The notes under the pieces are model-generated. The model did no database searches, was not told where the DNA came from, and worked only from the letters and a program-made list of their open reading frames with translations. From positions 11,335-75,334 of IMG/VR virus record IMGVR_UViG_3300047160_007353: a DNA stretch of 64,000 nucleotides; one strand, 5' to 3'. Positions 2,253-56,030 of this stretch are shown here, in pieces. Within the stretch, counting starts at the first letter, position 1; each line of letters begins with the position of its first letter. The DNA comes from a virus (taxonomy: Duplodnaviria; Caudoviricetes). A program made the position numbers and the translations under genes.

Positions 2253-2275
2253 TGAGACCTCGATTTGAGGTTTCA
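2253..2275. repeat. 23-bp dispersed palindrome, copy 1
   Basis: TGAGACCTC GATTT GAGGTTTCA, intergenic, just upstream of the AGGAGG ribosome binding site. Confidence 0.85.
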
Positions 2276-2297
2276 GCGATTTCAGGAGGGGATCGCC

Positions 2298-5200
2298 GTG
2301 GGATTGGGCGCCGCGCTCGAATATATCGGCGGTTCCCTGGACAAGCCGGGCCGCGCAGTCAGGGGGTTCCTTGGCGGCAAACCTCAGGAACTCCTGGCTG
2401 CTGTCCCGTTCTCGGACACACTCGGCTTGACCAACCCCAGCGACCGCGTCTCCGGTCGTGACCTGACGAACAAGTGGGGCCTGACCAGTCCAAGCGACAG
2501 GAGCTGGAACTCCTCGATCGCCGGGTTCGGCGCCGACATCGCAACCGACCCACTGAACCTGATCCCTGGCCACGCTCTGTATAAGGCTGGCAAATCAGCA
2601 TGGGGACTCGGCAAGTTTAATAAGGCTCAGCAAGCAGCCACCCACACAGACGAGCTTTATAGGGCGCTTGTGCCTTCTCTGAGCAGAGGGCCGTCGTCCC
2701 CGTCGCTCAGGACGGACTACCTCGACGCGCTACGCGACCCCAGCACCCAGCTTGGAAGACTGAAGACCCTAGCCGACTCGGCTGGCGTCAAGGTGTTCCC
2801 AAGGGCAGGCATCGATCCTGCCGGCGACCGCAACCTGATGAAACACCTGAACAGGACGTGGCCGGGTGTCGGTGATTCCGAACTCTACCCAAAGAGCCTG
2901 ACAGGCAAGGACATCCTCTCCAGCGACGAGGCTTTTCTTCAAGCTGCAAGGATCAACAACAACGCCGCCAGAGCCAAAGCTCATTACGACTCGAACACAC
3001 AGTGGATATATCCTCAGACTGTTGACGTCCGCGATTGGTGGTTCAATCCAGGCAAACCGGAAACATGGAAGATGTCTAGCGATTGGCTAGACGCGGAGCA
3101 AGCAGCGGCGGTAGCAAAACACAATAGATCGATTGGCTACAACCCGTTCGACTACGGAGACAGGACGGCAGTCCACGAGATCGGCCACGCCCTGCATCAC
3201 AAGAGATATGCCGACCAGGGCTATGGACCTGATCAATGGTTTAACATGCACGAAGATAATCCGGATTGGCTAAGGGCCTGGAGAGGAGAGATGGTCCCGA
3301 GCCAGGAGCCAGGAAGGCGGGTCTGGCAGCCGGGGATCGGCCCAAACGGCGGTCTGGCGTCCCAGGAAATATCCGAGCGTGCAGGAGCGGACCCTCACGA
3401 GTTCGTGGCTGAATCCTTCGCCAAGATGCACGGGGATCTAGCCAGCGGATTACAGGTCAGCCCTGAAGCCACAATGCCCAAGAGGCTATGGCAGGCATAC
3501 AACGACGTCTACCAAGGCCCTCCACTTCACAAGGGTCTCCTCGAAACTCTCCGTCGTCTCCAGGGTGGCAAGACCGCATCACTGAGAACTGATTACCTGG
3601 AGAGCCTTGGCAACCCCTCGACCCCGCTTGGCAGGCTTCAAGAGCTTGCCAAATCGACCAGCCGGGGCATTTCTGTGTTTCCTTATCGCTCCGGCTTCAC
3701 CCGTTCATCCGTTCGTCCGCCTTACGACCTTCGGAGAGTTCTCAAGAGCGACAAAGCGTTTGAAGAAAGCATGAGGCAGGAATTCGGGGTCAGGCACCCA
3801 GGCGCCTATGCGCTGTACGACGCAGACATCAAGCAAATCGCGCCGAACTTTCATGACCCGTACGCCGTGAACCTGTGGATGAAGCCAGAATTGATGGCCG
3901 AAGAAATGAAAAGAATGGGGCCTGGCAGAGGATCGTGGTTATCCACCTCTGACCCCAATCACCTTGCTGTTCACGAGATTGGTCACGGATTGCACCATAA
4001 AGTCCTTGATGATATGGGTATCTCGTTGCCCGGCAATAGATGGGCTTACGGCAAGATCGGACGAGAGCTTGGTGTTGATAGCAAGGGTTATTATAAGGCC
4101 GATCCCAGGTTGGTTGGACCAATGACTTACAAAGTCTCTGGCTACGCAGCCGATCATCCTTGGGAGTTTGTTCCTGAAGCTTACGCCAAGATGATTCATG
4201 ACATGGCCCGGGGGGCTACTCGCGATTTTAGCGAGTCTCTTTCTCCGGAACTGAACGACATCTATCGATCGCTCGGAGGTCCAAACCCCGAACAGAGCGG
4301 AGGTCTAATCGACACCCTCCGTCGTCTCCAGGGCGGCAAGACGTCTTCGCTCAGGACGGACTATTTTGACGCGCTCAATAACCCCAAATCGGTCTTGGCG
4401 AACGCCAAGAGAATGGCTGATACTGCTGGCGTCCATTGGTTCCCTTACTCGGGCGAGCATGGCGGCGGCATGATTCCCAAGAGTTTGAGCGACCAGGGCT
4501 TTAATGACCTTCTTCAGATGCCGCCCAAGTGGCATGCGGCATACTACCCAGAGTATCGATCGATACTCCCTAATGCCTACAATCAACCAGAACGATGGTT
4601 TTCCAACTACTCGACCAATCCCCTTTACCACGGCGGCGGCTCCCTGCATCCCCTCGCTGACTCCCAGACTCCCATTCACGAGATCGGCCACGCTCTGCAT
4701 CACCTCAGCGCCGGCAATCAGTTCCCAGAGCCCAGCCTTCTCGACCGACTTGGATTTCCCGAAGAAGATCGAGCCGGCTTGACCTCGGGCTTTGGTCACT
4801 GGTGGGCCAAGGATCTCGGGATAGGCAACGAGATCGACAGAACCATCAGGGGCTACGCGAGCACGAACCCTCACGAATTCGTCGCCGACTCTTACTCCAA
4901 GATGGCCATGGATCTGGCCACAAGGAAAGCGGCTGCCCAGTCCGAAGCCCTATCTCCTGAGCTGAACTACTTCTACAACAGGTTGCTGGGTCCGAGGGTC
5001 ACGCCCGAGGTGGTGAATGAAATCAGAAGGCAAACAGGTCTTGGCGCGCCTACTGCTATGGAAAGGTATCGCGATACTCTCAGAAACCCAGAGGCTTGGG
5101 CTCCGCATTTCGAGGCGGAGTTTCCCACCGCCTCCCCAAAGACATATTTCCCGGCTCCGCAGGGCGGCTTCCTCGGATCAAAGGGAGAGCCTTATGATTG

Positions 5201-5945
5201 GGGGAAAGCCGCAGAAGACCTCAATTCGGGAGACTGGCACAACTGGCTGAATGATATTGCCGACGAAGACCTGAAGACGGCTTCCCTCGGACCAGGATCC
5301 GCCGCTTCTACCCGGCAAGTCCCATCGACCGGCGCCGTCCCCGGCGGTCCTGGTCTATCGACAAACCTCCGTCCCTTGAGGGATCTGATCCCGGTTGCCA
5401 AGGAAGGTCACGGCGGCCTTCCGACGCGCGTTGTTGGCGGCCACTACGGACAGGACCGACCGGGCGCCATGTCTAATCTGCTCGGCATGGACCCCCTGAA
5501 CATGGGTGCCTCGAAGCCACCATGGAGCGAGTTCGCTGGAGCTGGGACGGCAGCCGTAAGAGATCCTGGAGCGGCGAGAGAAGAGATCCTTCACTCCATG
5601 ATCAGCAGAGCTGCCCACGAGAACGACCTCAGCAGCCTTCCGATGCTTGGCAAGCCGGCAGCCAGGCTGTACCAGTCGGCGTTACAGAACGACTCCCGGT
5701 CTCAATACGGTCTCGCCATGGTCCTCGATGAGCTGGCCGCCAAGACCATGTCCGGACGTGGCGCAGCACAGAAGCTCGGCAACGCCGCGAACTTCCTGCT
5801 GAATCCATCCCAGCACGTAGCGTACCACGGCCAGTTCGCCCCGTTCGGCGCCCTCCCGAACGTGGCCTACCATGGAGTGCCGGTCGCAGCATACGGGCTG
5901 CTTCCGGGCCTTGCAGCTTCGTACCGATTGGGACAACAACAATGA
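2298..5945 (+). CDS. large putative virion/ejected polyvalent protein with three tandem zincin (HExxH) metallopeptidase modules
   Basis: VHEIGHALHH, VHEIGHGLHH and IHEIGHALHH, each followed by an (H/W)EFV(A/P)(E/D)xxxKM motif. GTG start follows AGGAGG. Confidence 0.7.
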   Translation: MGLGAALEYIGGSLDKPGRAVRGFLGGKPQELLAAVPFSDTLGLTNPSDRVSGRDLTNKWGLTSPSDRSWNSSIAGFGADIATDPLNLIPGHALYKAGKSAWGLGKFNKAQQAATHTDELYRALVPSLSRGPSSPSLRTDYLDALRDPSTQLGRLKTLADSAGVKVFPRAGIDPAGDRNLMKHLNRTWPGVGDSELYPKSLTGKDILSSDEAFLQAARINNNAARAKAHYDSNTQWIYPQTVDVRDWWFNPGKPETWKMSSDWLDAEQAAAVAKHNRSIGYNPFDYGDRTAVHEIGHALHHKRYADQGYGPDQWFNMHEDNPDWLRAWRGEMVPSQEPGRRVWQPGIGPNGGLASQEISERAGADPHEFVAESFAKMHGDLASGLQVSPEATMPKRLWQAYNDVYQGPPLHKGLLETLRRLQGGKTASLRTDYLESLGNPSTPLGRLQELAKSTSRGISVFPYRSGFTRSSVRPPYDLRRVLKSDKAFEESMRQEFGVRHPGAYALYDADIKQIAPNFHDPYAVNLWMKPELMAEEMKRMGPGRGSWLSTSDPNHLAVHEIGHGLHHKVLDDMGISLPGNRWAYGKIGRELGVDSKGYYKADPRLVGPMTYKVSGYAADHPWEFVPEAYAKMIHDMARGATRDFSESLSPELNDIYRSLGGPNPEQSGGLIDTLRRLQGGKTSSLRTDYFDALNNPKSVLANAKRMADTAGVHWFPYSGEHGGGMIPKSLSDQGFNDLLQMPPKWHAAYYPEYRSILPNAYNQPERWFSNYSTNPLYHGGGSLHPLADSQTPIHEIGHALHHLSAGNQFPEPSLLDRLGFPEEDRAGLTSGFGHWWAKDLGIGNEIDRTIRGYASTNPHEFVADSYSKMAMDLATRKAAAQSEALSPELNYFYNRLLGPRVTPEVVNEIRRQTGLGAPTAMERYRDTLRNPEAWAPHFEAEFPTASPKTYFPAPQGGFLGSKGEPYDWGKAAEDLNSGDWHNWLNDIADEDLKTASLGPGSAASTRQVPSTGAVPGGPGLSTNLRPLRDLIPVAKEGHGGLPTRVVGGHYGQDRPGAMSNLLGMDPLNMGASKPPWSEFAGAGTAAVRDPGAAREEILHSMISRAAHENDLSSLPMLGKPAARLYQSALQNDSRSQYGLAMVLDELAAKTMSGRGAAQKLGNAANFLLNPSQHVAYHGQFAPFGALPNVAYHGVPVAAYGLLPGLAASYRLGQQQ

Positions 5946-6052
5946 CGCAGTACGTTCTGCCTCTCGTTGCGATCCTGGTCTACTACGTCTCGGCCTACCG
6001 CCTCCTTCATGGTTGGCTCTGGCGAAACCACCATCTTCAGAGGATCTCGTGA
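5942..6052 (+). CDS. small hydrophobic peptide (36 aa), not in ORF track
   Basis: MTQYVLPLVAILVYYVSAYRLLHGWLW...; ATGA overlap with the upstream stop and GTGA overlap with the downstream start. Confidence 0.5.
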   Translation: MTQYVLPLVAILVYYVSAYRLLHGWLWRNHHLQRIS

Positions 6053-6816
6053 AAGTCGAAAACGAACAGACCAAGTTCGAGAGCGGCGCCGTCCGGTCCA
6101 GTTGCGCGGCGAACTTCCGCTACGACCTCATCAGCCCCATCGGTCTTGAGGCTGTTGCGGCCGCCTGCAGGGAGGGTGCCGAGAAGTACGGAGACTGCAA
6201 CTGGGAGAAGGGCATGCCGATCAGCGACCTTCTCAACCACGCCGTCCGCCACATCTACATGTACCTCGCCGGTTACCGCGAAGAGGACCACCTCGGGCAT
6301 GCAGCATGGGGCCTCATGGCTGCCATACACAGCTCGGTCATGTGGCCCGAACTCAACCGCGACTTCTTCGCCCGTCCTGGCTGTGTCAAAAACCACGTCG
6401 AACTCGTTCCAACGCCGGCCAGCTCCTCGGAGTTCGAGTGTCCCTACGAATGCGACAACCCAACCTTCTGTCCCGACCTGGATCTTTGCGTTCTGGACAC
6501 TCTCCACGAGGCAATGGACAGGTGGGCCGTCGAGAACTGCGACCTCCTCGGCGACCTGGAGGTAGCCTTGAGTATCGAGGTGGATGATCTGGACCGGGCT
6601 CTCTATGTCAAGCTGATCGACTCGACGGCGAAGTACATGGGCAAAAGCGCCAGCTATAAAGCTTTGCCAGCCGAGGTCAAGATGCACGTCGGTTCTGACA
6701 CCGTCGATGAGCTGGCCGATTACATCGGCACAACCCTGATCACCGACCTCCAGGCTTGCATCCGCTTCGAGGGCATTTGTGCCCACCGGCAAACCCTGGA
6801 TTTCCCGAGAGTCTAA
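6049..6816 (+). CDS. dATP/dGTP diphosphohydrolase-like (DUF5664-type) domain protein
   Basis: KFESGAVRS...RYDLISP...GAEKYGDCNWEKG...AVRH...EDHLGHAAW pattern; GTG start after GAGGA. Confidence 0.7.
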   Translation: MKVENEQTKFESGAVRSSCAANFRYDLISPIGLEAVAAACREGAEKYGDCNWEKGMPISDLLNHAVRHIYMYLAGYREEDHLGHAAWGLMAAIHSSVMWPELNRDFFARPGCVKNHVELVPTPASSSEFECPYECDNPTFCPDLDLCVLDTLHEAMDRWAVENCDLLGDLEVALSIEVDDLDRALYVKLIDSTAKYMGKSASYKALPAEVKMHVGSDTVDELADYIGTTLITDLQACIRFEGICAHRQTLDFPRV

Positions 6817-6819
6817 GCC

Positions 6820-9800
6820 ATGCCTCCCGGCCTCGATTTGGACTTTGGCATCGGAAACTTCTCGCCGTCCCTCGGCATGCCCCAGAGGCAGTACGGATAC
6901 AACCTGCCGCAGGAGCCCGGCGAGAGGGAGTCCTTTGGCCAGGGCTTGATCGAGCGCAGCAAGGGGGCTCTCGGCTCCATCCTGCATGCCCTGGACTGGC
7001 CAGGATCCAAGGTCAGGGGCATACTCGGCGGCAAGCCAGGAGAGTCCCTGACCGGTCGTCAGCTATTGAATCAATACGGAGTCACCAACCCTGGCGACAG
7101 GGGGTGGGGCTCCTGGGGCGCCGGCCTCGCGGCCGACATCGCTACCGACCCGCTCATGTACGCCACCTTCGGCGCCAAGCACGCTCTTACCGGTGGAGGT
7201 AGAGCGCTCGAAAAGCTCGGCACGTTCCGAGGGTGGAACCGCAAAGCCATGCTGGAGGGTTTTCATGGTGTTGAGTCTGATCTGTCTGCTACTCGTAGCC
7301 CTGAGTACATTCGCCATCTCCGCGATGCTGGCCAACGCATTGCAACCCCCGGACAGGAGGCTGCCTACCAGGCTGCTACTGGGAAGGCTCTTCGTCCAAA
7401 CACTCCGATGTCTGGCCTGGCCCGCTTCTCTGTACCTTTCCAGCCTGAGCTTGGCTTTACGGTTGGTTCCGGAAGACTTGCTCGTAGAATTGCAGGAGGA
7501 CTCGACCGGGCGGGAGATTTCCTCAGCGTTGGGAATCCCGTATCACGAATGCTCGGAGCCGGTTTCGATTGGCGAAGACGATCTGCGGTAGACGAGATCA
7601 GCCAGAGGGCCGCGATGGCGACGACTCCTTACCGCAAGGCACAGGAGTCGGTCGCTCGCACCAGCGAGTACCGAACCCTCGATCCGATCAACAAACTCCT
7701 TCAGAAGTACCCCAAGAACGAGCACAACATTCAGCGTGCGGTCCAGATCAACGTCGAGAACACCTCGCCTCTTGCCCTCCTGTCCAGAGCCAAGAACCCG
7801 GCACAGAGGCGAGGGCTTGAGCGCCTCCTCAAGGAAACCCAACCCATAGGAGAAGAGATCCGGCTGAAGGAATCCGAGCAGCTAGCCGAGGCTCACGCCA
7901 AGGGGTTGAATCTCCAGAACTCGAACGATCCGTACGCTGAGTACGGGCCTCGGCAATCGACCGAGGCTTTGCTTGCAGCCAGAGAAGGAAGGGGCGGTCT
8001 TCAGCTACAAGAGAGGGGAGTTCTCTTCCCGGGAGGTTCCGGTGCGAACATGCATCGCAAGGACCCCTTGCGTGGTATACCAGGTGGCACAGACCGGATC
8101 AACGATTGGGTCAACAGGTTCGCAGGAGACAAACGAACCAGGAACGCCGTATTCTCTGATATGCTCGATGATTATATGCATATGCGCGGCGGTTCTGTTC
8201 CGACTTCTGATGAGACTCTGGCCCTCTTCAACAAGTCCGGAGAAGTGGAAACATTCCTTAAGGGACTTGCACCGAAGACCTACCTCGGTAAGATCAAGCA
8301 GCATCCATACTTCTCTCTGGATACTGCGGCGAATGTGCGGCGATCCGGAGAGCAGCATGCCCGAACCACATCATCCGCCGAGTCGCTATACAAGGGGATC
8401 GGATGGGCAGGACGAAAGGTAACGCCGGCAGAGCTGGCTTCCGGCGAATTCACTGACATCAACTCGGCGCTCAAGCAGCTCGGTCTCAGGACCTACAAGA
8501 CCGGCGACCCCAAGGCGTTCTGGAAGGGCGCCCGCGTCGAAGCCTACCGAGCCCTGGCTCCCAAGGGGGCCGGCGAGGTAGAGCCCCTCATGTCCAGGTA
8601 CAGCAAGAGGCTCAAAGCTAGCGTCCCTTCCAAGGCTCTTGAGAAGGAGCTGTCCACGGCATGGGGAATCCCGACGAAGGAACTGGGCAACCTCAAGAAG
8701 AGGTACGCCAACTGGATCTTGCCAGAGGAGGGGATCAAGCCAGTCCGGATATGGGACTCGCTGACGAACAGCTTCAAGGCCCTGTCGTACCCGATCTGGC
8801 TAGCTTCACACGTCCGAAACGCAACGACGGCGGCGTACCACAATCTGCTTACTGGCGTAAAAGGAAAGGACTATGCCAAGCAGTTCAACCTGATGCGTGG
8901 AAACTTGCCCGAGTCTGTAGCCGCCGGCATCCGAGAAGGCCAGTATGGGCACGGGCGAATATTCGAGGAAGGGGGGCCGCACTTGGAGTTGGCGGGAAGT
9001 TCTTTGCCCCACCCCGTACCCTCGGGTCGCTCGTGGACGAAATATACCCCGGGGACGAACCGCTACGGGCCTGGTCAGAGTGGGCCGACTGGGAGCTTTC
9101 TGGGAGACGTGGGCCATCTCCTCTGGAATGAAGGAGCACTCCAATTCGGGAAGGACGTGAAGAAATTCGCGGGCGACGTGGGGTCGGAGGTCAAGAAGCA
9201 GGGACTCGGCGGGTTCATCAAGAACCTCCCGAGTACCATGGAGAACTGGAAGGGGGCACCGAACCCGTTCGGGATCAGAGGCGTGGGAGGTCGTCAGCAA
9301 GACGTCTTCGGTCCAGTCAAAGTGGGGAGACAGATCAGCACGAACCTTGAGAACTTCTTCCGAGGCGCGCAGTTCGAGGGTCTCAAGCGGCAGGGCTACT
9401 CCTCCGAGATGGCAGTCGAGGTGTTGCGGAAACGCCACTTTGACTACGGGGACCTCGCCCGGTTCGAGAAGAACGTGGCTCGCCGCGCCGTTCCCTTCTA
9501 CACCTTCGCCCGGAAGAACCTACCATTACAATTAGAGACGCTCGCGACGCAGCCGGGCGCCTTCAGTGCCCCGTTCAAGCCGGCAATGGTTGACAGGGAC
9601 AAGCAGGAATACATTCCCGAGTATCTGGACCAGGGCTTCGTGATGCCGCTCGGTCCAGAGCAGGATGGATCGAGGCGATTCCTTTCGAGTCTTGGGCTTC
9701 CTCAGGAGGAAGCCTTCAGGGAGTTCAGCACTTGGAACGGACGACCGGACATCGGCAGCAGCCTGATGCACATGGCGGGCAACCTCAACCCGATCATCAA

Positions 9801-10293
9801 GGGACCACTGGAGCAGCTCGCCGACAGGCAGTTCTTCAGCGGCCGGCGGCTGTCAGACTTGAGACCTACTGCTACTGGAAAGGGGATTGCCTCCCTGTTC
9901 TCCGACGAATACTCTCAGCCCGTGAGCCAGTTTATCAGCAACACTCCGTTGACACGCTTTGCGACGTCATTGGACAAGCTTTTAGATACGCAAGGGCTGA
10001 ACGCGAATGGAAGGAAGCCTGGTTGGGCAACAGGGATCAACCTCGCGACGGGTGCCCGTATTACTGACGTGGACCTGGAGAAGCAGCGATACTTCGAGCA
10101 GCGCGACGCCGTGAGGCGGCTCATGGATTCGATGCCACACCTCAGTAAGTACACGGAGTATTACCCGAGGCCCGAACAGAAGGCACAGCTCACGCCAGAG
10201 GAGATAGACGCACTCCAGATGTCGAAGTACCTGAGAGACCGAGCCACGAAGTACATGGAGCGCAGGAGAATGCAGCAGGGGGTTCTGCCATGA
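6820..10293 (+). CDS. large putative internal virion / DNA ejection protein
   Basis: 1157 aa with a DIATDPL N-terminal segment. The C-terminal FDYGDL...RRAVPFYTFARKNLP region resembles large phage ejection proteins. Confidence 0.6.
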   Translation: MPPGLDLDFGIGNFSPSLGMPQRQYGYNLPQEPGERESFGQGLIERSKGALGSILHALDWPGSKVRGILGGKPGESLTGRQLLNQYGVTNPGDRGWGSWGAGLAADIATDPLMYATFGAKHALTGGGRALEKLGTFRGWNRKAMLEGFHGVESDLSATRSPEYIRHLRDAGQRIATPGQEAAYQAATGKALRPNTPMSGLARFSVPFQPELGFTVGSGRLARRIAGGLDRAGDFLSVGNPVSRMLGAGFDWRRRSAVDEISQRAAMATTPYRKAQESVARTSEYRTLDPINKLLQKYPKNEHNIQRAVQINVENTSPLALLSRAKNPAQRRGLERLLKETQPIGEEIRLKESEQLAEAHAKGLNLQNSNDPYAEYGPRQSTEALLAAREGRGGLQLQERGVLFPGGSGANMHRKDPLRGIPGGTDRINDWVNRFAGDKRTRNAVFSDMLDDYMHMRGGSVPTSDETLALFNKSGEVETFLKGLAPKTYLGKIKQHPYFSLDTAANVRRSGEQHARTTSSAESLYKGIGWAGRKVTPAELASGEFTDINSALKQLGLRTYKTGDPKAFWKGARVEAYRALAPKGAGEVEPLMSRYSKRLKASVPSKALEKELSTAWGIPTKELGNLKKRYANWILPEEGIKPVRIWDSLTNSFKALSYPIWLASHVRNATTAAYHNLLTGVKGKDYAKQFNLMRGNLPESVAAGIREGQYGHGRIFEEGGPHLELAGSSLPHPVPSGRSWTKYTPGTNRYGPGQSGPTGSFLGDVGHLLWNEGALQFGKDVKKFAGDVGSEVKKQGLGGFIKNLPSTMENWKGAPNPFGIRGVGGRQQDVFGPVKVGRQISTNLENFFRGAQFEGLKRQGYSSEMAVEVLRKRHFDYGDLARFEKNVARRAVPFYTFARKNLPLQLETLATQPGAFSAPFKPAMVDRDKQEYIPEYLDQGFVMPLGPEQDGSRRFLSSLGLPQEEAFREFSTWNGRPDIGSSLMHMAGNLNPIIKGPLEQLADRQFFSGRRLSDLRPTATGKGIASLFSDEYSQPVSQFISNTPLTRFATSLDKLLDTQGLNANGRKPGWATGINLATGARITDVDLEKQRYFEQRDAVRRLMDSMPHLSKYTEYYPRPEQKAQLTPEEIDALQMSKYLRDRATKYMERRRMQQGVLP

Positions 10294-10652
10294 CACTGAA
10301 CCAGCTCGCCGTTCTCTGCAAGAACTGGCAGTCCGTCCTCCGTCTCAAGGACTGGGACATCAAGGTTGGCTTCTCGACCAGGAACGAAATGGTGGAGGGC
10401 GCCCGCGGGCTTTGCATCCCCGAGATCGAGACCAAGACAGCCATCATCAGGGTGCTCGAAGAGAAGTGCTACGATGATGGACCGTGGCCCTACGACGCAG
10501 AGGAGACGCTCATTCATGAGCTTCTTCACCTTCACTTCCTCCCGATGAAGATCCAGCCTGACACCGCAGAGAACACTGCCCAGGAGCAGGCAATCAATCT
10601 GATCTCGGCCGCCCTCGTCGAACTCAAGAAGGTGGCCAAGAGAAAGGGCTGA
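10290..10652 (+). CDS. small HExxH zincin-like protein
   Basis: AEETLIHELLHLHF motif; ATGA overlap. Confidence 0.55.
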   Translation: MTLNQLAVLCKNWQSVLRLKDWDIKVGFSTRNEMVEGARGLCIPEIETKTAIIRVLEEKCYDDGPWPYDAEETLIHELLHLHFLPMKIQPDTAENTAQEQAINLISAALVELKKVAKRKG

Positions 10653-10658
10653 CGCGAA

Positions 10659-11600
10659 GTGATCATCACGAACCACGTCGAGCGTGCCGAGCTAGGTCAG
10701 CCCTTCTTCAGATTCCTGATGTCTGACCTTCACCTCGGCAGCGTGAATGCTGACCACAACCTGATCACCAGAGACCTGAGGAGGGCCAAAGATGTTGGAG
10801 CCCGAGTCCTCATCAACGGGGACATCTTCGACTGCATCGGAGCCAAGGACAAGAGATACGATCTCTCTGTCCTACATCCGGAGGTGGCAAGACGAAAGGA
10901 CCTCACTTCAGCAATCGTCGATGTCGCGTTCGACCTACTCCTGCCCTTCGCAGAAATCATCGATGTTGTGGGGATAGGCAACCACGAGGAGACCTGGATT
11001 GCTTACTGTAACACTGACCCAGTCGCCCGGCTCATCGAACGTCTTAATGCGAGTGCAGCAACATCGATTCGGCATGGTAGTTCCTGGGGCTACATACGAA
11101 CACGTTTTCTCGTTGGCGGGCACCGCAGACGTCCCTCTCACAGACTTCTTTACCTTCACGGAACGGGAGGCGATAGCCCCGTTACCAAAGGCACAATCGA
11201 TTTCGCACGCAAGGGACGTAACTGGCGTTACGACTGCCTGACGTTCGGCCACAAGCACAACTACGTGTGTTCGGCCGATCAGATCGGCGACGTATCCGAT
11301 GCTGGCCGGTACAGGGAGCGGCGCCAGCTCAACATCCAGACGGGCTCGTACTACCGGAACTACCGGCAGCTCGGGCAGAAGGATGTCCTAGACTACTCAT
11401 ACGCAGCCCGCTCGGCCCACCCTCCCAAGCCGTTGGGCGGCGTCTTCCTGATCCTGAAACCGATCGAAGGCGAGGACGGCCTGGAGATCGAGCAGGACTT
11501 CGCGAGCAACATCGTTCACCCATGGAAACCCAAGGCCAAGCGAGGCAATGAACAAAAAGCGAAACAGCAAGATCAGGACGTACACGGGTCTGATGTTTGA
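10659..11600 (+). CDS. calcineurin-like metallophosphoesterase
   Basis: SDLHLG, GDIFD, GNHE, HG and GHKH motifs in canonical order. Confidence 0.8.
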   Translation: MIITNHVERAELGQPFFRFLMSDLHLGSVNADHNLITRDLRRAKDVGARVLINGDIFDCIGAKDKRYDLSVLHPEVARRKDLTSAIVDVAFDLLLPFAEIIDVVGIGNHEETWIAYCNTDPVARLIERLNASAATSIRHGSSWGYIRTRFLVGGHRRRPSHRLLYLHGTGGDSPVTKGTIDFARKGRNWRYDCLTFGHKHNYVCSADQIGDVSDAGRYRERRQLNIQTGSYYRNYRQLGQKDVLDYSYAARSAHPPKPLGGVFLILKPIEGEDGLEIEQDFASNIVHPWKPKAKRGNEQKAKQQDQDVHGSDV

Positions 11601-13375: not shown

Positions 13376-13559
13376 GGTGTACCTCCTCGCGGATCTTGTC
13401 GTAACACGCGACGTAGCACTCGTAGTGGCGGTTGATCAGCCTCACGAAGTCGGCGGGTTGGAGGCTTCTTTTCACCAGGTCTTCGACCTCCACGCAAGCC
13501 CTCCGATTGAAAACCTCGGTTATCGAATCAATCCGCTTGTCGTATTCGTCCTCAGTCAT
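13359..13559 (-). CDS. hypothetical phage protein
   Basis: ATG at 13559 overlaps the sigma stop (ATGA). Confidence 0.5.
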   Translation of the reverse strand: MTEDEYDKRIDSITEVFNRRACVEVEDLVKRSLQPADFVRLINRHYECYVACYDKIREEVHRAKTQ

Positions 13560-14074
13560 TGTGGTTCGATCTCCTCGTAGCTCGCGTTCGAGGTTTCTAG
13601 CGCCATCCGCACGGTCTCTTCCTTCTCTTGCGAGAAGTCGAGGTAAGCAGCAATCTCCCTGTGGGTTGGCTCTCGTCCGATGATCTCGGCCAGCAATCGC
13701 TTTGCTCGCTCCCACTTCGCAAGCAGGGTCACAACGTAGGCGGGCAGCTTGATGGGCTTGCCCGAAGACAGGACGATCCGCCGCATGGACTGCCTGATCC
13801 AAGCGGCGGCGAACGTCGAAAACCTCGTCCCCAGGGACAGGTCATAGGCGTCGATGGCTCTCATGAGCCCGAGGTTTCCCTCGCTGATCAGGTCCTCGCG
13901 GCCGACGCCGCTTTCCTTGTACTTCGCGGAAAGCCTGATCACCAACCGCAGGTTGGCCTTGATGGCGACCTCTCTTGCTTCGGGGTCACCGTCGGCGATC
14001 CTCTTGAACACCTCGATCTCCTGCTCGCGTGTCAAGAGGGGAGTCTTGGAGACGTCCGAGAAGTATTCTCTCAT
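13556..14074 (-). CDS. sigma-70 family factor, regions 1.2-3 only (no region 4)
   Basis: PLLTREQE, ANLRLV, DLISEGNLGLMRAIDAYD...GTRFSTFAAAWIRQ, GREPTHREIA, then a stop. Confidence 0.85.
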   Translation of the reverse strand: MREYFSDVSKTPLLTREQEIEVFKRIADGDPEAREVAIKANLRLVIRLSAKYKESGVGREDLISEGNLGLMRAIDAYDLSLGTRFSTFAAAWIRQSMRRIVLSSGKPIKLPAYVVTLLAKWERAKRLLAEIIGREPTHREIAAYLDFSQEKEETVRMALETSNASYEEIEPQ

Positions 14075-17846: not shown

Positions 17847-17869
17847 TGAAACCTCAATTTGAGGCTTCA
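17847..17869. repeat. 23-bp dispersed palindrome, copy 2
   Basis: TGAAACCTC AATTT GAGGCTTCA; contains the stop codon of 17854..18465. Confidence 0.9.
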
Positions 17870-24301: not shown

Positions 24302-24537
24302 GGAGACCCTCCTTCCTGAAGCCTCATGAAGTCGGTGTAGGAGAAGCAGATCCACATGTCGCCCACGATGACGTAGACCGAGGTCTCCTCGGACTGGTAG
24401 ACCGCGACGGGGATATCCAGCTTCTCTCTGCCGAACCCGATCGCGTCATTGACCCTGAGGAACCCTTGCTCGCCGCCCTTGATGCGGGCAACAGACACGG
24501 GTTCGATGGCGCAGAAGCGCCTTGCGACTTCCGGCAT
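24298..24537 (-). CDS. hypothetical phage protein
   Basis: ATGA-coupled to the MTase gene. Confidence 0.45.
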   Translation of the reverse strand: MPEVARRFCAIEPVSVARIKGGEQGFLRVNDAIGFGREKLDIPVAVYQSEETSVYVIVGDMWICFSYTDFMRLQEGGSP

Positions 24538-25287: not shown

Positions 25288-25310
25288 TGAAGCCTCAATT
25301 TGAGGTTTCA
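25288..25310. repeat. 23-bp dispersed palindrome, copy 3
   Basis: TGAAGCCTC AATTT GAGGTTTCA; contains the stop of the YkgJ-like gene (...RETSN*). Confidence 0.9.
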
Positions 25311-31772: not shown

Positions 31773-31795
31773 TGAAACCTCAAATCGAGGCTTCA
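31773..31795. repeat. 23-bp dispersed palindrome, copy 4
   Basis: TGAAACCTC AAATC GAGGCTTCA at a divergent junction. Confidence 0.9.
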
Positions 31796-35436: not shown

Positions 35437-35464
35437 TTGACAGGCTGTGGGCGTGAGCTATAAT
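35437..35464 (+). promoter_or_regulatory. consensus sigma-70 promoter
   Basis: TTGACA (35437-42), 16 nt, TATAAT (35459-64). Confidence 0.8.
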
Positions 35465-35469
35465 CAAGA

Positions 35470-35799: not shown

Positions 35800-36834
35800 T
35801 TGGAAACGCGATCCTACAAGCTCGCCGCCTGCCGGTTCCCCGGCAACTCCTCCGAACATCCCGCCTCTGCCGGCTGGTTCGCCACGACCTGGGCCAACAC
35901 ATGGATGAAGGATGACCGGATCTCGGACGTCATCCCCCTCCGTCTGTCCGACACGCCGATCTCGATGTCGAGAAACAACATTGTGTGGGCGGCCCTGGAG
36001 CACGGAGCCGACTACATCCTCATGCTCGACTCGGACATGAAGCCCGACTGCGAGCCAGACGGCAAACCGTTCTGGTCCAGCTCGTGGGACTTCATGATGG
36101 AATATCGAGCGCGCGAAGAGGCGTACGCCAGCAACATGAGGGCGGTTCCCTGGACCGACGACTCAGAATCGATCGAGACTTCGTGCAGGCGGCTCTATCC
36201 CCCGGCCACGATCGCCGCGCCGTATTGCGGCCCTCCGCCGTGGGAGGTCGTCTACATGATGAAATGGGTCCGCGACGAAACGAACTCCCCCACCGACCCC
36301 AGGCCCTACCACCTGGAAATGTTCGACCGCGACCACGCCGCCGACTTCACCGGGATCTTCGAGGTAGCCGCCATGGCCACCGGGCTGATCCTCTATGACG
36401 CCCGGGTCTTCAAGGAGCTTCCGCCGCCCTGGTTCTATTACGAATACGAAGACAAGTTCCACAAGAGGAAGGTGAGCACGGAGGACATCGTCCAGACCCG
36501 CAACGCCAGTCTTCTGGGCTTGCCCCAGTATTGCAACTGGGACTCGTGGGCTGCCCACATCAAGCTGAAGTCTGTGCGCAAGCCGCGCAAACTGGACGTT
36601 TCCGCCGTCCCGAACGCCTTCGCCGATGCGGTCCGCAAGGGAACCAGGGGCAATCACAAGGTCGTGATCGTTGGAGACAAAGAGGACCAGTTCGAGCGTC
36701 CCCGGATCGTACGGCCCGGCTACCCCGACTTCAGCCACCAGGATTCCGGTCTCACCCAGGAGCCCCCGCCAGCCTTCTTTTTCGGGGCCTCGACGGCTAT
36801 TCCTGGGCTAAAACTCCCTGAAACCTCAAATTGA
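35800..36834 (+). CDS. GT-A fold glycosyltransferase-like protein
   Basis: ADYILMLDSDM (DxD), ATGLILYDARVF...PPPWF, TEDI, DSWAAH. Confidence 0.65.
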   Translation: METRSYKLAACRFPGNSSEHPASAGWFATTWANTWMKDDRISDVIPLRLSDTPISMSRNNIVWAALEHGADYILMLDSDMKPDCEPDGKPFWSSSWDFMMEYRAREEAYASNMRAVPWTDDSESIETSCRRLYPPATIAAPYCGPPPWEVVYMMKWVRDETNSPTDPRPYHLEMFDRDHAADFTGIFEVAAMATGLILYDARVFKELPPPWFYYEYEDKFHKRKVSTEDIVQTRNASLLGLPQYCNWDSWAAHIKLKSVRKPRKLDVSAVPNAFADAVRKGTRGNHKVVIVGDKEDQFERPRIVRPGYPDFSHQDSGLTQEPPPAFFFGASTAIPGLKLPETSN

Positions 36835-36841
36835 GGCTTCA
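36819..36841. repeat. 23-bp dispersed palindrome, copy 5
   Basis: TGAAACCTC AAATT GAGGCTTCA; contains the GT stop (...PETSN*). Confidence 0.9.
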
Positions 36842-36881
36842 CGCGCAGCAGTGATCTTTACGATCACGCACAGCGGGGATC

Positions 36882-42352: not shown

Positions 42353-43290
42353 GGATTTGAGGTTTCGCGTATCCCGCCGCCCAACATCCATCCGTTAGGA
42401 TACCGGGCGTCCAGCTTGGCCATGTTCGCGCGGGCACATTCAGCAAGAGATGTGTTAAACAGGGCGCACAGGGCATCCAGGGAGATCAGGACGAAGAAGA
42501 CGCTCTTGGCCTGGTCGTCAACGTTCTGGCCTTTGCGGTGCCATCGGATCTTCTTGAACCGGTTGGACAGCATTCCGGCGTTTGCCGACATCTCAATCAG
42601 GACATCCTGGCATTGATGTAGCCAACCGATAAGGTTCTGCTGGACCTCCTGGGGGGCGTCATCCAGCTTGGAAATCATCTGGGCCGGGATCTTCATCACG
42701 GCCATGTAAGACGCCGCGAATCCGGCGGCCTGCTCGTCCGGGATCATCCGGCCGATCTCGCCTCTCCCCCGCAGTATGGATTCGTCGATCGTGTCGGCGA
42801 CCCACGAGGCGGTGAAGATCACGTCACCAATCTCGTCCCGGATCTTTGTCAGGAACTCCGGGCTGACCAGGCCGCTGTCGGCTCCAAGGATGACGGTTGA
42901 CAGCTCGGCCACTTCGCCGACGCACTCGTGGATCGCCTGGTCCATCTCGTCGAGCCAGATCGGCGCACGAAGGGCGGATGGCTGGCACTTGGTTTCACGC
43001 CACTGGCAGTAGTCCTGCCAGGTCAACTTGGTTTCCTGTTTTGCTGGAGTTTCCGGCTCAGGAAAATCGACTGTTTTGGGAACGATGATTCCTCCCCTGG
43101 ATCGCTTCTCCTCTTCCGGGAAGAATCCGCCGTTCTCAGGCCCGTAGCCGCCAGGCGTACGAACCTGAGCAACCGGCCCCACGTTCACCGGCCGCTTGAT
43201 GCCGACCTTGCGGTCGCGGGACTGACGGCCATCCCTCAAGGGGATGCTGTCTGGAAGCAGTTCGGTCTTGTTGCCTTCTTCTCTCATCAT
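42349..43290 (-). CDS. MazG-like NTP pyrophosphohydrolase domain protein
   Basis: ECVGEVAEL...RDEIGDVIF...ANMAKLDARYPNG. Confidence 0.7.
   Translation of the reverse strand: MMREEGNKTELLPDSIPLRDGRQSRDRKVGIKRPVNVGPVAQVRTPGGYGPENGGFFPEEEKRSRGGIIVPKTVDFPEPETPAKQETKLTWQDYCQWRETKCQPSALRAPIWLDEMDQAIHECVGEVAELSTVILGADSGLVSPEFLTKIRDEIGDVIFTASWVADTIDESILRGRGEIGRMIPDEQAAGFAASYMAVMKIPAQMISKLDDAPQEVQQNLIGWLHQCQDVLIEMSANAGMLSNRFKKIRWHRKGQNVDDQAKSVFFVLISLDALCALFNTSLAECARANMAKLDARYPNGWMLGGGIRETSNP
42354..42367. repeat. half-site of the dispersed palindrome
   Basis: On the minus strand, CGAAACCTC AAATC then unrelated CATGA; at the MazG/RusA junction (...RETSNP*). Confidence 0.6.
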
Positions 43291-44932: not shown

Positions 44933-44936
44933 CGGA

Positions 44937-47285: not shown

Positions 47286-48934
47286 CAGAAGAATTCCCCT
47301 TGTTTCAAGATGATCTGAGACACGATCGAGGCGGCTTCCTTCTGGGTTGCCGTTCGGGCCTGCTCCTCCGAGACGCCGGATTCGAGCATGCGCTTAACGT
47401 ACTGGTGAGAAGCCAGTCCCTTTTTCTCCCGGCTCTTGAGTTTCGAGATGAGGCGGGACGCGCCCCAGAGGTTCATTGACTGCGCGTTCTCGACGCCCAT
47501 GGATGACAGAAGATCGACCTGAGCCCTGGTAGCCTCACCGCCGTAGCGCGAGTTGAAATCCTTCCCACGGCGCATTCTGAGGTTTAGAACCTTGCCGATC
47601 CCGAACGGGGTCGAGTCACAAGAACTATAGATCGTTGTGAGCTTGCCAGTGTAATGAACCTGAACGATCCCTCTCCGGAGATCGTTCTCGATCCCTTTCA
47701 GTTCCGCAAGGACGTCGATATCCCTGTCCTTGTATTCCTTGCTCCTGAGTCTCTTTTCGAGGATCTCCATCGCCTCATTCTTTTCCTCGGAGCAGAACAG
47801 GTCATGAGCCATGCAGAGCCGGCGGCTACGGTCGTCAGTCTTCCAGTCCAGGTCCAGGACCAGGCAGTTTGTCTTGCCGATCGAGGGGCAAAGCCTGAGC
47901 CCCCTGCCGACCCGCTGAGCGAATACGGATCTCTTTTTCGTGGCGCGGGCGTTCACCACGCAGGAGATGCTCGGCATGTCCCAGCCTTCGACCAGCAGAT
48001 CGCTGCAAGTCACGACCTGGGTCTCCCGCTCCTTGACCCGGTTGAGGCGTTCTTTCCTGACCTCTCTGGTTATTCCGTATTCCCCTCCTTCTCCAGCTAC
48101 GTACTCGGCCTTGCGGCCCATCTGGCGGAGCATATCCGCGACCAGAGAGGATGACCCGCGGTCCGGACAGAAGACCACTGTCTGGCGGTCCCCGATGTTT
48201 ACATGGATCTGGTAACAAAGGCGCTCGATCTCTGGGCTGAGCCGGTCGGCCAGATCCCCGGCGTTGAAATCGCCGCCGGTCGTCCTGATCCCTCGGAGGT
48301 CCACGGGAACCTTGATCCTTCGGAGGGTATAGGGCACCAGATAGCCATTCTCGACAGCGTCGCGCAGGCGAAGCTGGTATCCGATCTTGTCGAATATTTC
48401 TCCCAGGTTTCGCTTGGCGGAATCTGGCGTCGCCGTAATACCAAGGACTTTGGCTCCCTCGAAGTAGGAAAGCACGTCCTGGTAAGACTTTGCGCCGGCG
48501 TGGTGTGCTTCGTCTACAACGATGAGACCAAAATGATCCTTCGGGAATCTGCCAGCCATCCGGTCAGCGTAAAGGGACTGAATGGTGGCCACCACGACCT
48601 GAGCCTGGAACCCCTTCTCCTTGGACCAGTCATCATGAGAAAGGGAACCCGACTCTATGGCGGTGTCGAAGTCGAAGGCCTTCACGTAGGTATTTGCTGC
48701 TTGCTCGATCAGCTCCGTCCGGTGAGCAATGAACAGGACGGGGCTGCCGATGCTTTGAAGGAACCAGTCAGCGATCAGGCCCGACGTGATCGTTTTTCCG
48801 GTTCCGGTCGGCATGGCAACAAGAACGGCGTTGTGGCCGCTTCTCCATGCTTCCACAACGCCGCAGAGAGCCTCGATCTGGTATTCCTCCCGCCTGATGG
48901 TCGGCGGGAGGACCAGAGTTCTGGGATCGAGCAT
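47285..48934 (-). CDS. DEAD/DEAH-box SF2 helicase
   Basis: MPTGTGKT, VVDEAHH, GITATP, LVEGWD, QRVGRGLR. Confidence 0.9.
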   Translation of the reverse strand: MLDPRTLVLPPTIRREEYQIEALCGVVEAWRSGHNAVLVAMPTGTGKTITSGLIADWFLQSIGSPVLFIAHRTELIEQAANTYVKAFDFDTAIESGSLSHDDWSKEKGFQAQVVVATIQSLYADRMAGRFPKDHFGLIVVDEAHHAGAKSYQDVLSYFEGAKVLGITATPDSAKRNLGEIFDKIGYQLRLRDAVENGYLVPYTLRRIKVPVDLRGIRTTGGDFNAGDLADRLSPEIERLCYQIHVNIGDRQTVVFCPDRGSSSLVADMLRQMGRKAEYVAGEGGEYGITREVRKERLNRVKERETQVVTCSDLLVEGWDMPSISCVVNARATKKRSVFAQRVGRGLRLCPSIGKTNCLVLDLDWKTDDRSRRLCMAHDLFCSEEKNEAMEILEKRLRSKEYKDRDIDVLAELKGIENDLRRGIVQVHYTGKLTTIYSSCDSTPFGIGKVLNLRMRRGKDFNSRYGGEATRAQVDLLSSMGVENAQSMNLWGASRLISKLKSREKKGLASHQYVKRMLESGVSEEQARTATQKEAASIVSQIILKQGEFF

Positions 48935-50247
48935 CAGGTCCAGTCCTCAAGTTTCGGATGGTAGGCGCCGCCGTAGCAGCCTTTGCACGCGTCTTCGGTT
49001 TCCTTGTCCTTGCCCGTGCCCATGCAGGTCCCACAGACCAACCAGTCGCGGGGATGCGCCATGCGGGAAATCTTGGCCACCGAGTGAAAGAAGAAGCCGT
49101 TGCCGTCAGGATGGCGCGTCTCCAGGCAGTATTTCTTCCAGGGCTTGCGGATTCGCGCCACGGACTCGTAGATCCGCCGGTACAGGATGGCGTCGCGACG
49201 GAAAGGACCTTTGCGCTGGAGCAAGGCCAGGAGGCGGTGGCAGTGGCGGGCAAGCCATTCGTCGTCGGTGAGGTCGGCCTCCTTCGTCCTCTTCTTCTCC
49301 TCGTCCTCGGTGCTGGCCTCCTCTTCGGCATCCGAGCCAGCCGCCTTCTTCTTTCCGCCGGAACGGGCCTTTGGGGCTGCGGCCTTCTTCTCCGCCGCCT
49401 TGGCGCCGGCCGTCTTCTGGGCCACCCGCACCGCCTCGTCGTGGCTCATGCCGGCCGCGATCATCTTGATGGCATTGTCCACCTCCTCCTGGTCCTTCAG
49501 GGAGGCCAGCTTGGCGGCGACCTCGTCGTTGCAATTGCTCGCGTGGAGGGCCTTGAGCTGGTCCTCGGTCAGATTGTTGACGATCGTGCACAGGCGCTCC
49601 GCCGAGGACTTCGCGATCCCCAGGGCGTTCATCAACACCTGGTAGAAAGGCGTGTTCTCCTCCGCGATCTCCTTGCGACGTCCGTCGATCCGCTCGGCCC
49701 GCTCCTCAGTGGTCGGCTCGGACTTCTCCGCCTCGATCTCGGCATCAACCTGCTTTGCCGCCTCCTTCTTCTGCCGGAAGTTGGCTCCGGTCCCGTGGGC
49801 CAACGGATAGCGGGCCTGGTGGATCGAGGACCAGTCCTTGATGGACAACTTCGTCTGAAGCTCGTCGAGGCCCATGCGGAAGAGGTTCTCCGCGTACTCC
49901 ATGGCCTTCGCGAGTTGTTCGTCCAGGTCGGTGGCGACCCGGCACGGGATGTCAGTCCAGTTCAGGATCTTGGCGCAGGTGTAGACGCGCTTGCGTCCGC
50001 AGATCACCTTGTAGGTCCCGGGCTTTCCAGCCACCGGCATCACCACCGGGAGCTGGATCAGTCCGTCCTTGGTGATCGAGTCGGCCAGGGAGTGACAGAA
50101 GTCCTTGGTAAACGGCGTCCTCGTCGTATCCGGTTTCTCGATCGTGAGACATTCGACCGGTATCGTTTGTTCGGTCATGTGTTCGTATTGCTCCGTCTGT
50201 GCGGTGGTGTTGGTCAGGAGGGTGTGGGTTGTCATCGGCGACGACAT
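48934..50247 (-). CDS. ParB-family protein (ParB N-terminal domain plus HTH-like region)
   Basis: LADSITKDGLIQLPVV...YKVICGRKR (GxxR)...AENLFR; start uncertain. Confidence 0.75.
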   Translation of the reverse strand: MSSPMTTHTLLTNTTAQTEQYEHMTEQTIPVECLTIEKPDTTRTPFTKDFCHSLADSITKDGLIQLPVVMPVAGKPGTYKVICGRKRVYTCAKILNWTDIPCRVATDLDEQLAKAMEYAENLFRMGLDELQTKLSIKDWSSIHQARYPLAHGTGANFRQKKEAAKQVDAEIEAEKSEPTTEERAERIDGRRKEIAEENTPFYQVLMNALGIAKSSAERLCTIVNNLTEDQLKALHASNCNDEVAAKLASLKDQEEVDNAIKMIAAGMSHDEAVRVAQKTAGAKAAEKKAAAPKARSGGKKKAAGSDAEEEASTEDEEKKRTKEADLTDDEWLARHCHRLLALLQRKGPFRRDAILYRRIYESVARIRKPWKKYCLETRHPDGNGFFFHSVAKISRMAHPRDWLVCGTCMGTGKDKETEDACKGCYGGAYHPKLEDWT

Positions 50248-50281: not shown

Positions 50282-50304
50282 TGAAACCTCAAAACGAGGC
50301 TTCA
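50282..50304. repeat. 23-bp dispersed palindrome, copy 6
   Basis: TGAAACCTC AAAAC GAGGCTTCA, just upstream of the ParB gene. Confidence 0.9.
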
Positions 50305-53192: not shown

Positions 53193-53215
53193 TGAAACCT
53201 CAAATCGAGGCTTCA
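53193..53215. repeat. 23-bp dispersed palindrome, copy 7
   Basis: TGAAACCTC AAATC GAGGCTTCA at a divergent junction. Confidence 0.9.
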
Positions 53216-55459: not shown

Positions 55460-55469
55460 GGGAAGGCCC

Positions 55470-55742
55470 ATGTCAACCGCTCAGAGCATGCCCCAGGTTG
55501 GGCCTCCTCCAGCGCCCGACAAACCACTTCTCGTTGTTTCCCGCAGTACAGGCATGAAGGCGCTGGCCGTCCTGGCCGTCGCCGCCGTCGGTATTACCGG
55601 CTTTCACTTCGGAATGGCCGAAGGAAGGAAGTCGGGCCGTCCAGTCTGCAAGTGCGACTGCAAGCCATGCCGCAAAACCGGAGAGTCTGTTGATGTTCTC
55701 GATGCCTCGTCCAAGCCTGGGACCGGTGGTCTGGTACGCTGA
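55470..55742 (+). CDS. small membrane protein with Cys cluster
   Basis: ALAVLAVAAVGITGF; CKCDCKPC. Confidence 0.35.
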   Translation: MSTAQSMPQVGPPPAPDKPLLVVSRSTGMKALAVLAVAAVGITGFHFGMAEGRKSGRPVCKCDCKPCRKTGESVDVLDASSKPGTGGLVR

Positions 55743-56010
55743 CGCCACCCCCGGCAAGGATTCCGTACCCGCGCCCGCAATGGTCACCGCCATCGGTGAG
55801 CGATCGGTCTCCCTGACCATCTTCGCCCCTGACAACCGTGGCGGCATTCCCAAGGACGGCGTGCGCCACTGTTCCGACCCGGACAACCGCATGCACCCGG
55901 GCTACGACGGCGGCTCCTGGGACTTCCTGCCCTCCGAGATCGCGATTGTTGGCAGACTCATGGCCCTCGAGGCAGAGATCGCCGAACTCCAGAACAGCAT
56001 CACCCGCTGA
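55690..56010 (+). CDS. hypothetical phage protein
   Basis: VVWY...PAMVTAIG...VSLTIF pattern; stop codon is the first TGA of palindrome copy 8. Confidence 0.55.
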   Translation: MMFSMPRPSLGPVVWYADATPGKDSVPAPAMVTAIGERSVSLTIFAPDNRGGIPKDGVRHCSDPDNRMHPGYDGGSWDFLPSEIAIVGRLMALEAEIAELQNSITR

Positions 56011-56030
56011 AGCCTCAAATTGAGGTTTCA
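56008..56030. repeat. 23-bp dispersed palindrome, copy 8
   Basis: TGAAGCCTC AAATT GAGGTTTCA upstream of the portal gene. Confidence 0.9.

Follow-up and report, generated by a model that had tools for sequence, protein, structure and literature searches.

Palindromes at the gene junctions of a tailed phage and its relatives, and a ParB-like protein as their candidate reader

Eight palindromes in one phage genome

We analyzed 64,000 nucleotides (the window) of a tailed-phage genome, referred to here as G000; the window comprises bases 11335-75334 of the 75,334-bp IMG/VR virus record IMGVR_UViG_3300047160_007353, which is rated complete. The subject of this study is a family of 23-bp imperfect palindromes that lie at the gene junctions of this phage. 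Four main transcription units diverge from two of these junctions (31773 and 53193): the leftward small genes, the head genes, the recombination and replication genes, and the terminase and portal genes. The copies at 31773 and 53193 are the only ones found in divergent junctions, and their placement in front of the head-gene and terminase operons agrees with the original prediction, an earlier annotation made from the DNA letters alone.

A search of the window with TGAARCCTC-N5-GAGGYTTCA (<=2 mismatches) returned exactly eight matches, at the same eight coordinates that had been predicted (Table 1), and no match occurred in 100 dinucleotide-preserving shuffles. The remaining 11 kb of the record (genome bases 1-11334) contain no copy. 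Seven of the eight copies carry the arms TGAAACCTC and TGAAGCCTC, and the copy at 2253 carries TGAGACCTC. All eight are asymmetric by one purine, with the asymmetric base of copy 3 oriented opposite to that of most other copies, and the spacers read AAATC, AAATT, AATTT and AAAAC. The identical arms and shared asymmetry of the seven copies, as well as the spacers, had been described correctly, and the half-site reported at 42354 is also real. By our own, crude gene calls, every copy occupies a short gap or the last codons of the upstream open reading frame (ORF), as had been claimed: six of the eight are mostly non-coding (binomial p = 8e-6), and the remaining two run into the coding end of the ORF before them. 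The upstream ORFs end in EASN*, ETSN*, ETSN* and EASF* at the sites, including both of the C-termini that had been noted before. A start codon follows 20-37 bases beyond each copy, with a Shine-Dalgarno sequence between the two; in all phages compared, the sites stop 0-11 bases short of the Shine-Dalgarno sequence. Lone 10-base arms were seen twice where about 0.6 would be expected, which is not clearly above chance, and the lone arm at 24317 may be a chance occurrence.

Table 1. Palindromic sites of G000 and the gene of the candidate reader (positions in the window)
Feature	Position	Sequence feature	Context
Copy 1	2253..2275	arm variant TGAGACCTC	between ORF 1538-2230 and 1215-aa gene; GTG start 22 bases on
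Copy 2	17847..17869		over stop of 202-aa ORF (EASN*); 21 bases before start of minus-strand 958-aa SNF2-type helicase gene
Copy 3	25288..25310		over stop of ORF 25295-25915 (ETSN*); 20 bases before start of minus-strand 210-aa gene
Copy 4	31773..31795		divergent junction: leftward small-gene block (start 31746) / rightward head-gene operon (start 31876)
Copy 5	36819..36841		over stop of 344-aa ORF (ETSN*), end of head block
Copy 6	50282..50304		directly upstream of ParB/Noc/KorB-like gene, 26 or 35 bases depending on ATG
Copy 7	53193..53215		divergent junction: Rad52/Erf-like recombination operon (start 53155) / terminase operon (start 53275)
Copy 8	56008..56030	first TGA = stop of 105-aa ORF	29 bases before start of 656-aa portal-like gene
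Partial copy	42354..42367	spacer and one arm, 13 bases	at RusA gene start; closest relative, G001, has full palindrome at same junction
Lone arm	24317..24326	TGAAGCCTCA	15 bases before start of methyltransferase gene 23072-24301
Orphan protein, predicted ParB/Noc/KorB fold	48934-50247 (-)		437 aa: ParB N-terminal domain, acidic linker, ParB-type helix-turn-helix, C-terminal CxxC...CxxC zinc ribbon

In the region 36839-36910 (plus strand), beside the copy at 36819, a 25-bp tandem duplication begins in the last bases of the palindrome and doubles a -35-like TTKACG. The second copy of the duplication forms part of a sigma-70-like promoter (36882-36910, TTGACG-17-TATGAT) in front of a 70-aa ORF, which is conserved in the relatives G001, G003 and G004 described below and whose matches in a protein atlas are Planctomycete hypothetical proteins only. 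Searches for other repeated 10-mers and for a promoter motif shared by 31 upstream regions gave nothing convincing.

Related phages and their own palindromes

Relatives of G000 were found through its portal-like protein and were taken as whole or partial genomes from IMG/VR and GTDB; some close relatives (71-80% portal identity) were seen in the protein database only. Relatives of the portal-like protein number in the hundreds, and some are encoded on chromosomes, namely in Singulisphaera sp. GP187 and in metagenome-assembled genomes (MAGs) of Planctomycetales. These chromosomal relatives make it very likely that the host of G000 is a Planctomycete and indicate that the group includes integrated prophages.

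We found that each relative has a palindrome family of its own. G001 (80% portal identity to G000) carries 9 copies of TGTSGTGCCAAWTTGGCACSACA, and G002 (64%) carries 10 copies of ATGAACGCCAWWTGGCGTTCAT, which palindromic flanks lengthen to about 32 bp. The complete, 70-kb genome of G003 (58%) has 8 copies of GCAAAGSTCATWATGASCTTTGC, of which seven are the same and the eighth differs by one change, with AAAAG/CTTTT as flanks; the Singulisphaera prophage G004 (58%) has 8 copies of ATTTGTCAGWCTGACAAAT, or 9 when counted in the host genome; and L130, from a MAG (57%), has 3 copies of CGATGMCCATTTTGGKCATCG. No such families appeared in shuffled genomes of the relatives, and in three relatives the copies are enriched between genes (p = 1e-5 to 1e-8). 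Most families have an inner core YCA-N2-3-TGR in common, and their outer arms are wholly different.

The places of these sites are kept. The junction between the recombinase (Rad52/Erf-like) and terminase genes holds a palindrome in eight relatives (G001-G004, L130, L008, L009 and L131), and in some of them this is the sole copy, or one of two, seen in the locus analyzed; in L012, L029 and L135 no palindrome stood out at this junction. A palindrome flanks the portal gene in six genomes (G001-G004, L130 and L009), and three genomes have one 3' of the 202-aa gene, the junction of copy 2 in G000 being occupied in G003 and in the Singulisphaera prophage as well. The motif itself has changed wholly between relatives whose portals are 58-80% identical. 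A motif that is not conserved in related phages, although the flanking genes are, was among the observations named in the original prediction as counting against it. The exact sequence is indeed not conserved, and different palindromes hold the same junctions, which argues for function rather than against it.

The motifs are also private to their phages. The exact G000 motif is absent from all other IMG/VR contigs, and 596 Gb of unrelated genomes gave 26 single matches against about 17 expected by our own arithmetic. This is about the chance number, so the motif is not a host repeat, a possibility raised as a check in the original prediction. In the 10.7-Mb genome of Singulisphaera sp. GP187 the G004 motif is found 9 times; a prophage stretch of 57 kb contains all 9, and none lies outside. 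One metagenome scan with a 16-base-equivalent pattern gave only single chance matches among the matches listed. Neither an 8-kb megablast search against INPHARED phages nor a single-protein search of viral contigs returned a match, and a search of viral contigs with the relatives' motifs revealed no second phage with a shared motif.

Several observations adjoin these results. One stray exact palindrome of the G001 type, the only further match of the search with the relatives' motifs, occurs in an apparently unrelated phage contig, IMGVR_UViG_3300044799_000643 (L270-L272, 45% G+C), which has 4 copies of a palindrome of its own, TGTTCGTC-N-GACGAACA. On the chromosome of Singulisphaera sp. GP187 (L257:10532-15893) the IMG/VR provirus call for the prophage is too short on the left, with homologs of the 958-aa helicase lying beyond the boundary. 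A site beside this provirus edge was considered as attP and rejected, given that the phage helicase genes run on past the edge. In G003, two palindromes of opposite orientation bracket an AATTG pentamer array in the recombinase/terminase junction (L088:16456-16844), a region that looks like an origin- or centromere-like control region.

Taken together, the kept places, the rewritten sequences and the restriction of each motif to its own phage point to a cis-element that has a function and evolves in step with a reader encoded by the phage, and not to a selfish repeat. We consider it quite probable that the palindromes are double-stranded DNA sites for a co-evolving phage protein.

A candidate reader and the competing explanations

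Among the products of G000 whose domains we scanned, the recognizable DNA-binding proteins were a sigma factor of the extracytoplasmic function (ECF) type, a second sigma factor lacking region 4, a small serine recombinase and the ParB-like protein encoded just downstream of copy 6. The last of these scored 30.7 bits against the Pfam ParB_N model (cut-off 26.3) and matched the ParB-like partition proteins of PHROG (E = 2e-23), and its sequence matches in the PDB are ParB and Spo0J. Over 250-270 columns its predicted structure (mean predicted local distance difference test score, pLDDT, 79) aligns with chains of Noc, ParB-parS and KorB, with E values between 1.6e-8 and 5e-5, a match that in this model spans the N-terminal and DNA-binding domains. 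Of all structured parts of the protein, the helix-turn-helix, with the pattern LGIAKSSAERL...LTEDQL, varies most among 10 homologs, and the whole protein is among the least conserved of those shared with G001 (31% identity vs 80% for the portal). Of the motifs that form the cytidine triphosphate (CTP) pocket, the ENLQR box reads ENLFR here, and E-N-x-x-R is invariant in the 10 homologs. A scan of viral contigs with an alignment of this protein recovered only three relatives that were already known. We also observed that the protein and all 10 homologs end in a zinc-ribbon-like module, HPxDW...CxxCxGxG...CxxCxGxGY (residues about 395-430); to our knowledge, no characterized ParB, Noc or KorB protein has such a module.

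The strongest point in favor of this protein is its linkage in cis to a site. The ParB-like gene of G000 and that of G001 each have a copy directly upstream, and the only copies found within coding regions, in G004, L130 and (imperfect) L009, lie in the part of the same gene that encodes the acidic linker, at homologous positions and with three different sequences. This arrangement resembles that of parS in or beside parB. We found no ParA: the deviant Walker A motif KGGxGK[ST] is missing from our gene calls of G000, G003 and G004, and the Pfam scans contained none. With a relative integrated into a chromosome, this makes a regulatory or organizing role of the KorB or Noc kind fit better than partition. 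The general interpretation in the original prediction, a DNA site for a two-fold symmetric protein, fits all tests made here, and its list of candidates holds up in part; the proposal of N15-like centromere sites named the right protein family, although not the function that now fits best.

A number of points weigh against the ParB-like protein as reader. The GERRxR box of the CTP pocket is GRKR here and GxHR in relatives, with only the G and the last R invariant, which leaves the clamp chemistry uncertain. G003 and L012 (also L008) have no copy in or beside the ParB-like gene, and sites also flank a pair of ECF-sigma and RusA genes in three relatives, so that linkage is not unique to ParB. 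Comparison of recognition-helix residues with the motif core in eight pairs of ParB-like protein and motif revealed no simple code. The sites measure 19-33 bp with an A/T-rich centre and are longer than known parS, OB and Noc sites, which are 13-16 bp. The obligate one-base asymmetry, present in all copies of G000, G003 and L130, is unexplained by a plain homodimer; it occurs in either orientation relative to identical flanks in these three phages and possibly arises from a heterotypic half-site preference or from homogenization of the copies by one master sequence. Finally, the Pfam scan covered about 40 of some 95 ORFs, so a small unrecognized repressor could be the reader. On balance, we hold the assignment of the ParB-like protein, which is made from sequence and a structural model, to be evenly balanced between right and wrong.

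In the reading that we favor, the eight palindromes delimit the transcription units of G000 and dock a phage-encoded protein of two-fold symmetry. Each phage of the group has its own version of the site, which would evolve with the reader while the places are kept. Were the reader the ParB-like protein, the two helix-turn-helix domains of its dimer would bind the two arms. By analogy with KorB of RK2, Noc and ParB, the protein may then spread or slide from these loading sites, possibly as a nucleotide-dependent clamp, and spreading could silence or organize the adjacent gene blocks, for example keeping the prophage quiet. This complete account, from double-stranded sites through a ParB-like reader to the silencing or organizing of gene blocks, is the best explanation that we can offer, and we give it an even chance.

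The most serious alternative is that the palindromes are operator- or stoperator-type sites for another, small and unrecognized phage repressor that blocks RNA polymerase at the heads of gene blocks in lysogeny, the ParB-like protein being unrelated to them. It draws on the same comparative evidence; moreover, fast turnover of sites between close relatives is the pattern of heteroimmune repressors and their operators (PMC6550527), the relatives are integrated prophages, and a lone plus-strand gene amid minus-strand genes (29098-29670) and many small ORFs have no assigned function. However, no domain of the CI, Cro or XRE type was detected among the about 40 proteins scanned, there is no site near the lone gene (190 aa), and the copy embedded in the ParB-like gene of three relatives would need a separate explanation. 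Cluster A stoperators, furthermore, are asymmetric and co-oriented with transcription, and the sites of the G000 group are neither. We therefore regard a repressor of this kind as a doubtful but serious contender.

A second alternative is that the element works as an RNA hairpin immediately before the ribosome-binding site, acts in processing, stability, attenuation or translational control and is read by its structure or by a phage RNA-binding protein. One strand of all eight G000 copies folds without mismatch by means of G.U pairs, its spacer invariably begins with R and ends with T, and the predicted hairpins reach -14 to -22 kcal/mol (z-scores -3.3 to -6 on the better-pairing strand); the short distance to the Shine-Dalgarno sequence also fits. 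The original prediction, which had called the orientation relative to transcription mixed, is only partly right in this: in six of the eight copies, the G.U-compatible strand is the sense strand for the gene that starts 21-37 bases downstream, a bias that is not statistically significant. In the relatives, however, the asymmetric pairs are C.C/G.G (G003), C.T/A.G (L130), G/C (G001) and T.T (G002), transversions that break pairing on either strand; the sites point both ways relative to the genes that follow them (R, F, F, R in G003); and no compensatory changes were seen between copies within a genome. Complementarity of the flanks was considered as covariation and rejected, since real flanks pair no better than chimeric ones (-6.87 vs -6.84 kcal/mol; permutation p = 0.47). 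Copies also lie in divergent and convergent junctions and within a coding region, and Rfam found nothing in the window at gathering score. A terminator scan reported none of the eight sites, in agreement with the absence of a U-tract noted earlier; the canonical G+C-rich, U-tailed terminators at 35642, 26884 and 22728 look different, and a 4-T flank on both sides occurs in G003 only. Pairing-breaking transversions, non-specific flank pairing and the missing U-tract together leave an RNA hairpin, an ordinary terminator, a promoter and a recombination site poorly supported, and we judge a role in RNA to be improbable.

Even less probable is that the small serine recombinase (18661-19419) uses the palindromes for crossover, or that they are selfish copy-and-paste elements without phage function, similar to repetitive extragenic palindromic (REP) sequences or miniature inverted-repeat transposable elements (MITEs). 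The recombinase gene is of the resolvase/invertase type and is conserved in G003 and G004. Invertase sites have inverted arms around a central dinucleotide, and the G002 motif can be read in this way, as 10-bp arms around a central TT/AA. A linked asymmetry in either orientation (G003 and L130), in turn, is expected from copy-and-paste of one master. On the other hand, recombination among 8-10 sites that point either way would leave essential genes scrambled or lost. Gene order in G000 and G001 is collinear across seven sites, which indicates that the sites are not active in recombination; the rearrangement breakpoints between G000 and G003 are not at sites; and the centres are of odd length, 3 or 5 bases, in four of five palindrome families. 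The recombination sites listed among the original candidates are thus not borne out. Selfish insertion does not predict that positions are kept while sequences are replaced completely, and beyond the prophage the host chromosome carries no copy. Least probable of all is a phage-specific promoter for one of the two sigma factors: it would suit the short-leader distance to the start codons, the copy in each divergent junction heading the four main units and the chance-level number of sigma-70-like promoters in the window (none overlapping a site), but sigma promoters are not palindromic, the hexamer-like parts are ~11 bp apart instead of the 16-18 bp between -35 and -10, the centre of the G004 motif (GTC/GAC) does not resemble a -10 element, some copies sit in convergent junctions (36819 in G000, 43785 in G003, 3406 in G001) and inside a gene, and such turnover between relatives is unusual for sigma/promoter pairs.

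The two sigma factors were characterized further. The 172-aa sigma-70-family protein encoded at 13556-14074 (minus strand) has regions 1.2, 2 and 3 and no region 4 by Pfam; RpoS and RpoD NCBIfam models match it to about model position 180-210, and its stop is coupled to the next gene. The 241-aa ECF-type sigma (41141-41866, minus strand) aligns with TIGR02937 over nearly its full length with a score below the cut-off. It is conserved but divergent (22-41% identity) in G001, G003 and G004, with a palindrome just after the stop in G003 and G004. Near one of the canonical terminators, a perfect TTGACA-16-TATAAT promoter is followed ~200 bases on by the strong G+C-rich, U-tailed terminator at 35642-35666, with no credible ORF between them (35437-35681, plus strand); this is a candidate small RNA, predicted from these signals, without an Rfam match at gathering score.

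Elsewhere in the genome, some 17 hexamer units, (CTCCCA)n, form an array at the right end of the record that continues at its left end (63896-64000 and genome bases 1-12), which points to a terminal repeat or to an assembly joined into a circle. Direct-repeat arrays of 12-24 bp (ACGCCAGGACGC-like; 28388-28527) fall within 900 bp where no genes were called (27919-28828) and could be an iteron or origin region. At 6049-6816 (plus strand) and 42349-43287 (minus strand) the phage encodes a protein with a dATP/dGTP diphosphohydrolase N-terminal domain (Pfam E = 4e-17) and a weak MazG-like protein; it also has two DNA methyltransferases (23072-24301 and 43781-44932), and judging from these genes it may alter the nucleotide pool or its DNA bases. 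The late operon encodes two giant proteins, one of 1215 aa (2298-5945, plus strand) with a weak match to a zinc metallopeptidase (Peptidase_Mx, E = 1e-4) and one of 1157 aa (6820-10293, plus strand). Their homologs in G002-G004 are arranged differently; after the giant-protein gene pair of G003 comes a convergent junction with a palindrome.

Comparison with known systems

Dispersed palindromes private to a phage are known in several phage groups, and mostly, as in Cluster O, their reader and function have not been established. What the G000 group adds is a concrete candidate reader, a set of natural relatives whose sites and protein have been rewritten together, and a cultured host, Singulisphaera sp. 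GP187, whose related prophage has nine private sites. If the ParB-like protein does read the palindromes, the loading-site logic that the ParB family follows on RK2 and on chromosomes would also serve to control the whole genome of a tailed phage, and CI-type repressors would not be the only route to immunity-like specificity. A more far-reaching version, which we put forward only tentatively and think somewhat unlikely, is that an orphan ParB-like protein, instead of or besides a CI-type repressor, runs the whole phage chromosome from 8-10 private palindromes at the heads of gene blocks, one of them in or beside its own gene; protein and sites would be rewritten together, yielding a ParB-based immunity or incompatibility specificity, with the asymmetry as part of the recognition code.

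The closest parallels are KorB with its OB sites on RK2, Noc, and ParB with parS. They share with the G000 group a protein of ParB fold (N-terminal domain and helix-turn-helix, predicted in our case), several near-identical palindromes dispersed over one replicon, many of them by the starts of gene blocks, sites of odd length with a degenerate central base, and one copy at or in the gene of the protein itself. RK2 carries 12 OB sites, and a parS lies in spo0J. The G000 group differs in its longer sites (19-33 bp), the unconserved GERRxR box and the C-terminal zinc ribbon; a partner of the ParA/IncC or KorA type was not detected, the replicon is a temperate tailed phage of Planctomycetes, and binding to the sites is a prediction here. 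KorB silences promoters of RK2 at long range from its OB sites (PMC11790492).

Cluster A mycobacteriophages (L5 gp71, Bxb1 gp69) have 20-30 stoperators per genome that co-vary with the repressor (PMC6550527). As in the G000 group, many near-identical sites absent from the host are spread genome-wide over short intergenic gaps, and the motif differs between related phages; in Cluster A it does so in step with a phage protein (PMC6550527), and here the motif also turns over. Stoperators, however, are asymmetric 13-bp sites co-oriented with transcription and read by a known immunity repressor, whereas the sites described here are long palindromes in mixed orientation, 8-10 per genome, with no recognized repressor.

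Cluster O mycobacteriophages carry a 17-bp palindrome, TGTTCGG-N3-CCGAACA, with 34 copies in Corndog, for which the authors proposed a dimeric protein and the role was not established (PMC4351075). Invariant inverted arms, a short A/T-rich spacer, an orientation without meaning for transcription and absence from the host are common to both groups. In Cluster O, however, there are four times more copies, about a third of them within genes, and one sequence serves all five phages, whereas in the G000 group the copies are almost all at junctions and each lineage has a different sequence.

Phage N15 has dispersed SopB centromere sites, and the Streptomyces phage phiC31 has conserved inverted repeats (CIRs) bound by the c repressor. 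In both, as proposed here, palindromic sites for one phage protein are scattered over a temperate genome, some of them near promoters. N15 differs in having a ParA partner and plasmid replication, and phiC31 in its c repressor, of which no homolog was recognized in G000. Particular to the present case are the arrangement of a site in cis with the ParB-like gene, the obligate asymmetry of the palindromes and the availability of a cultured host.

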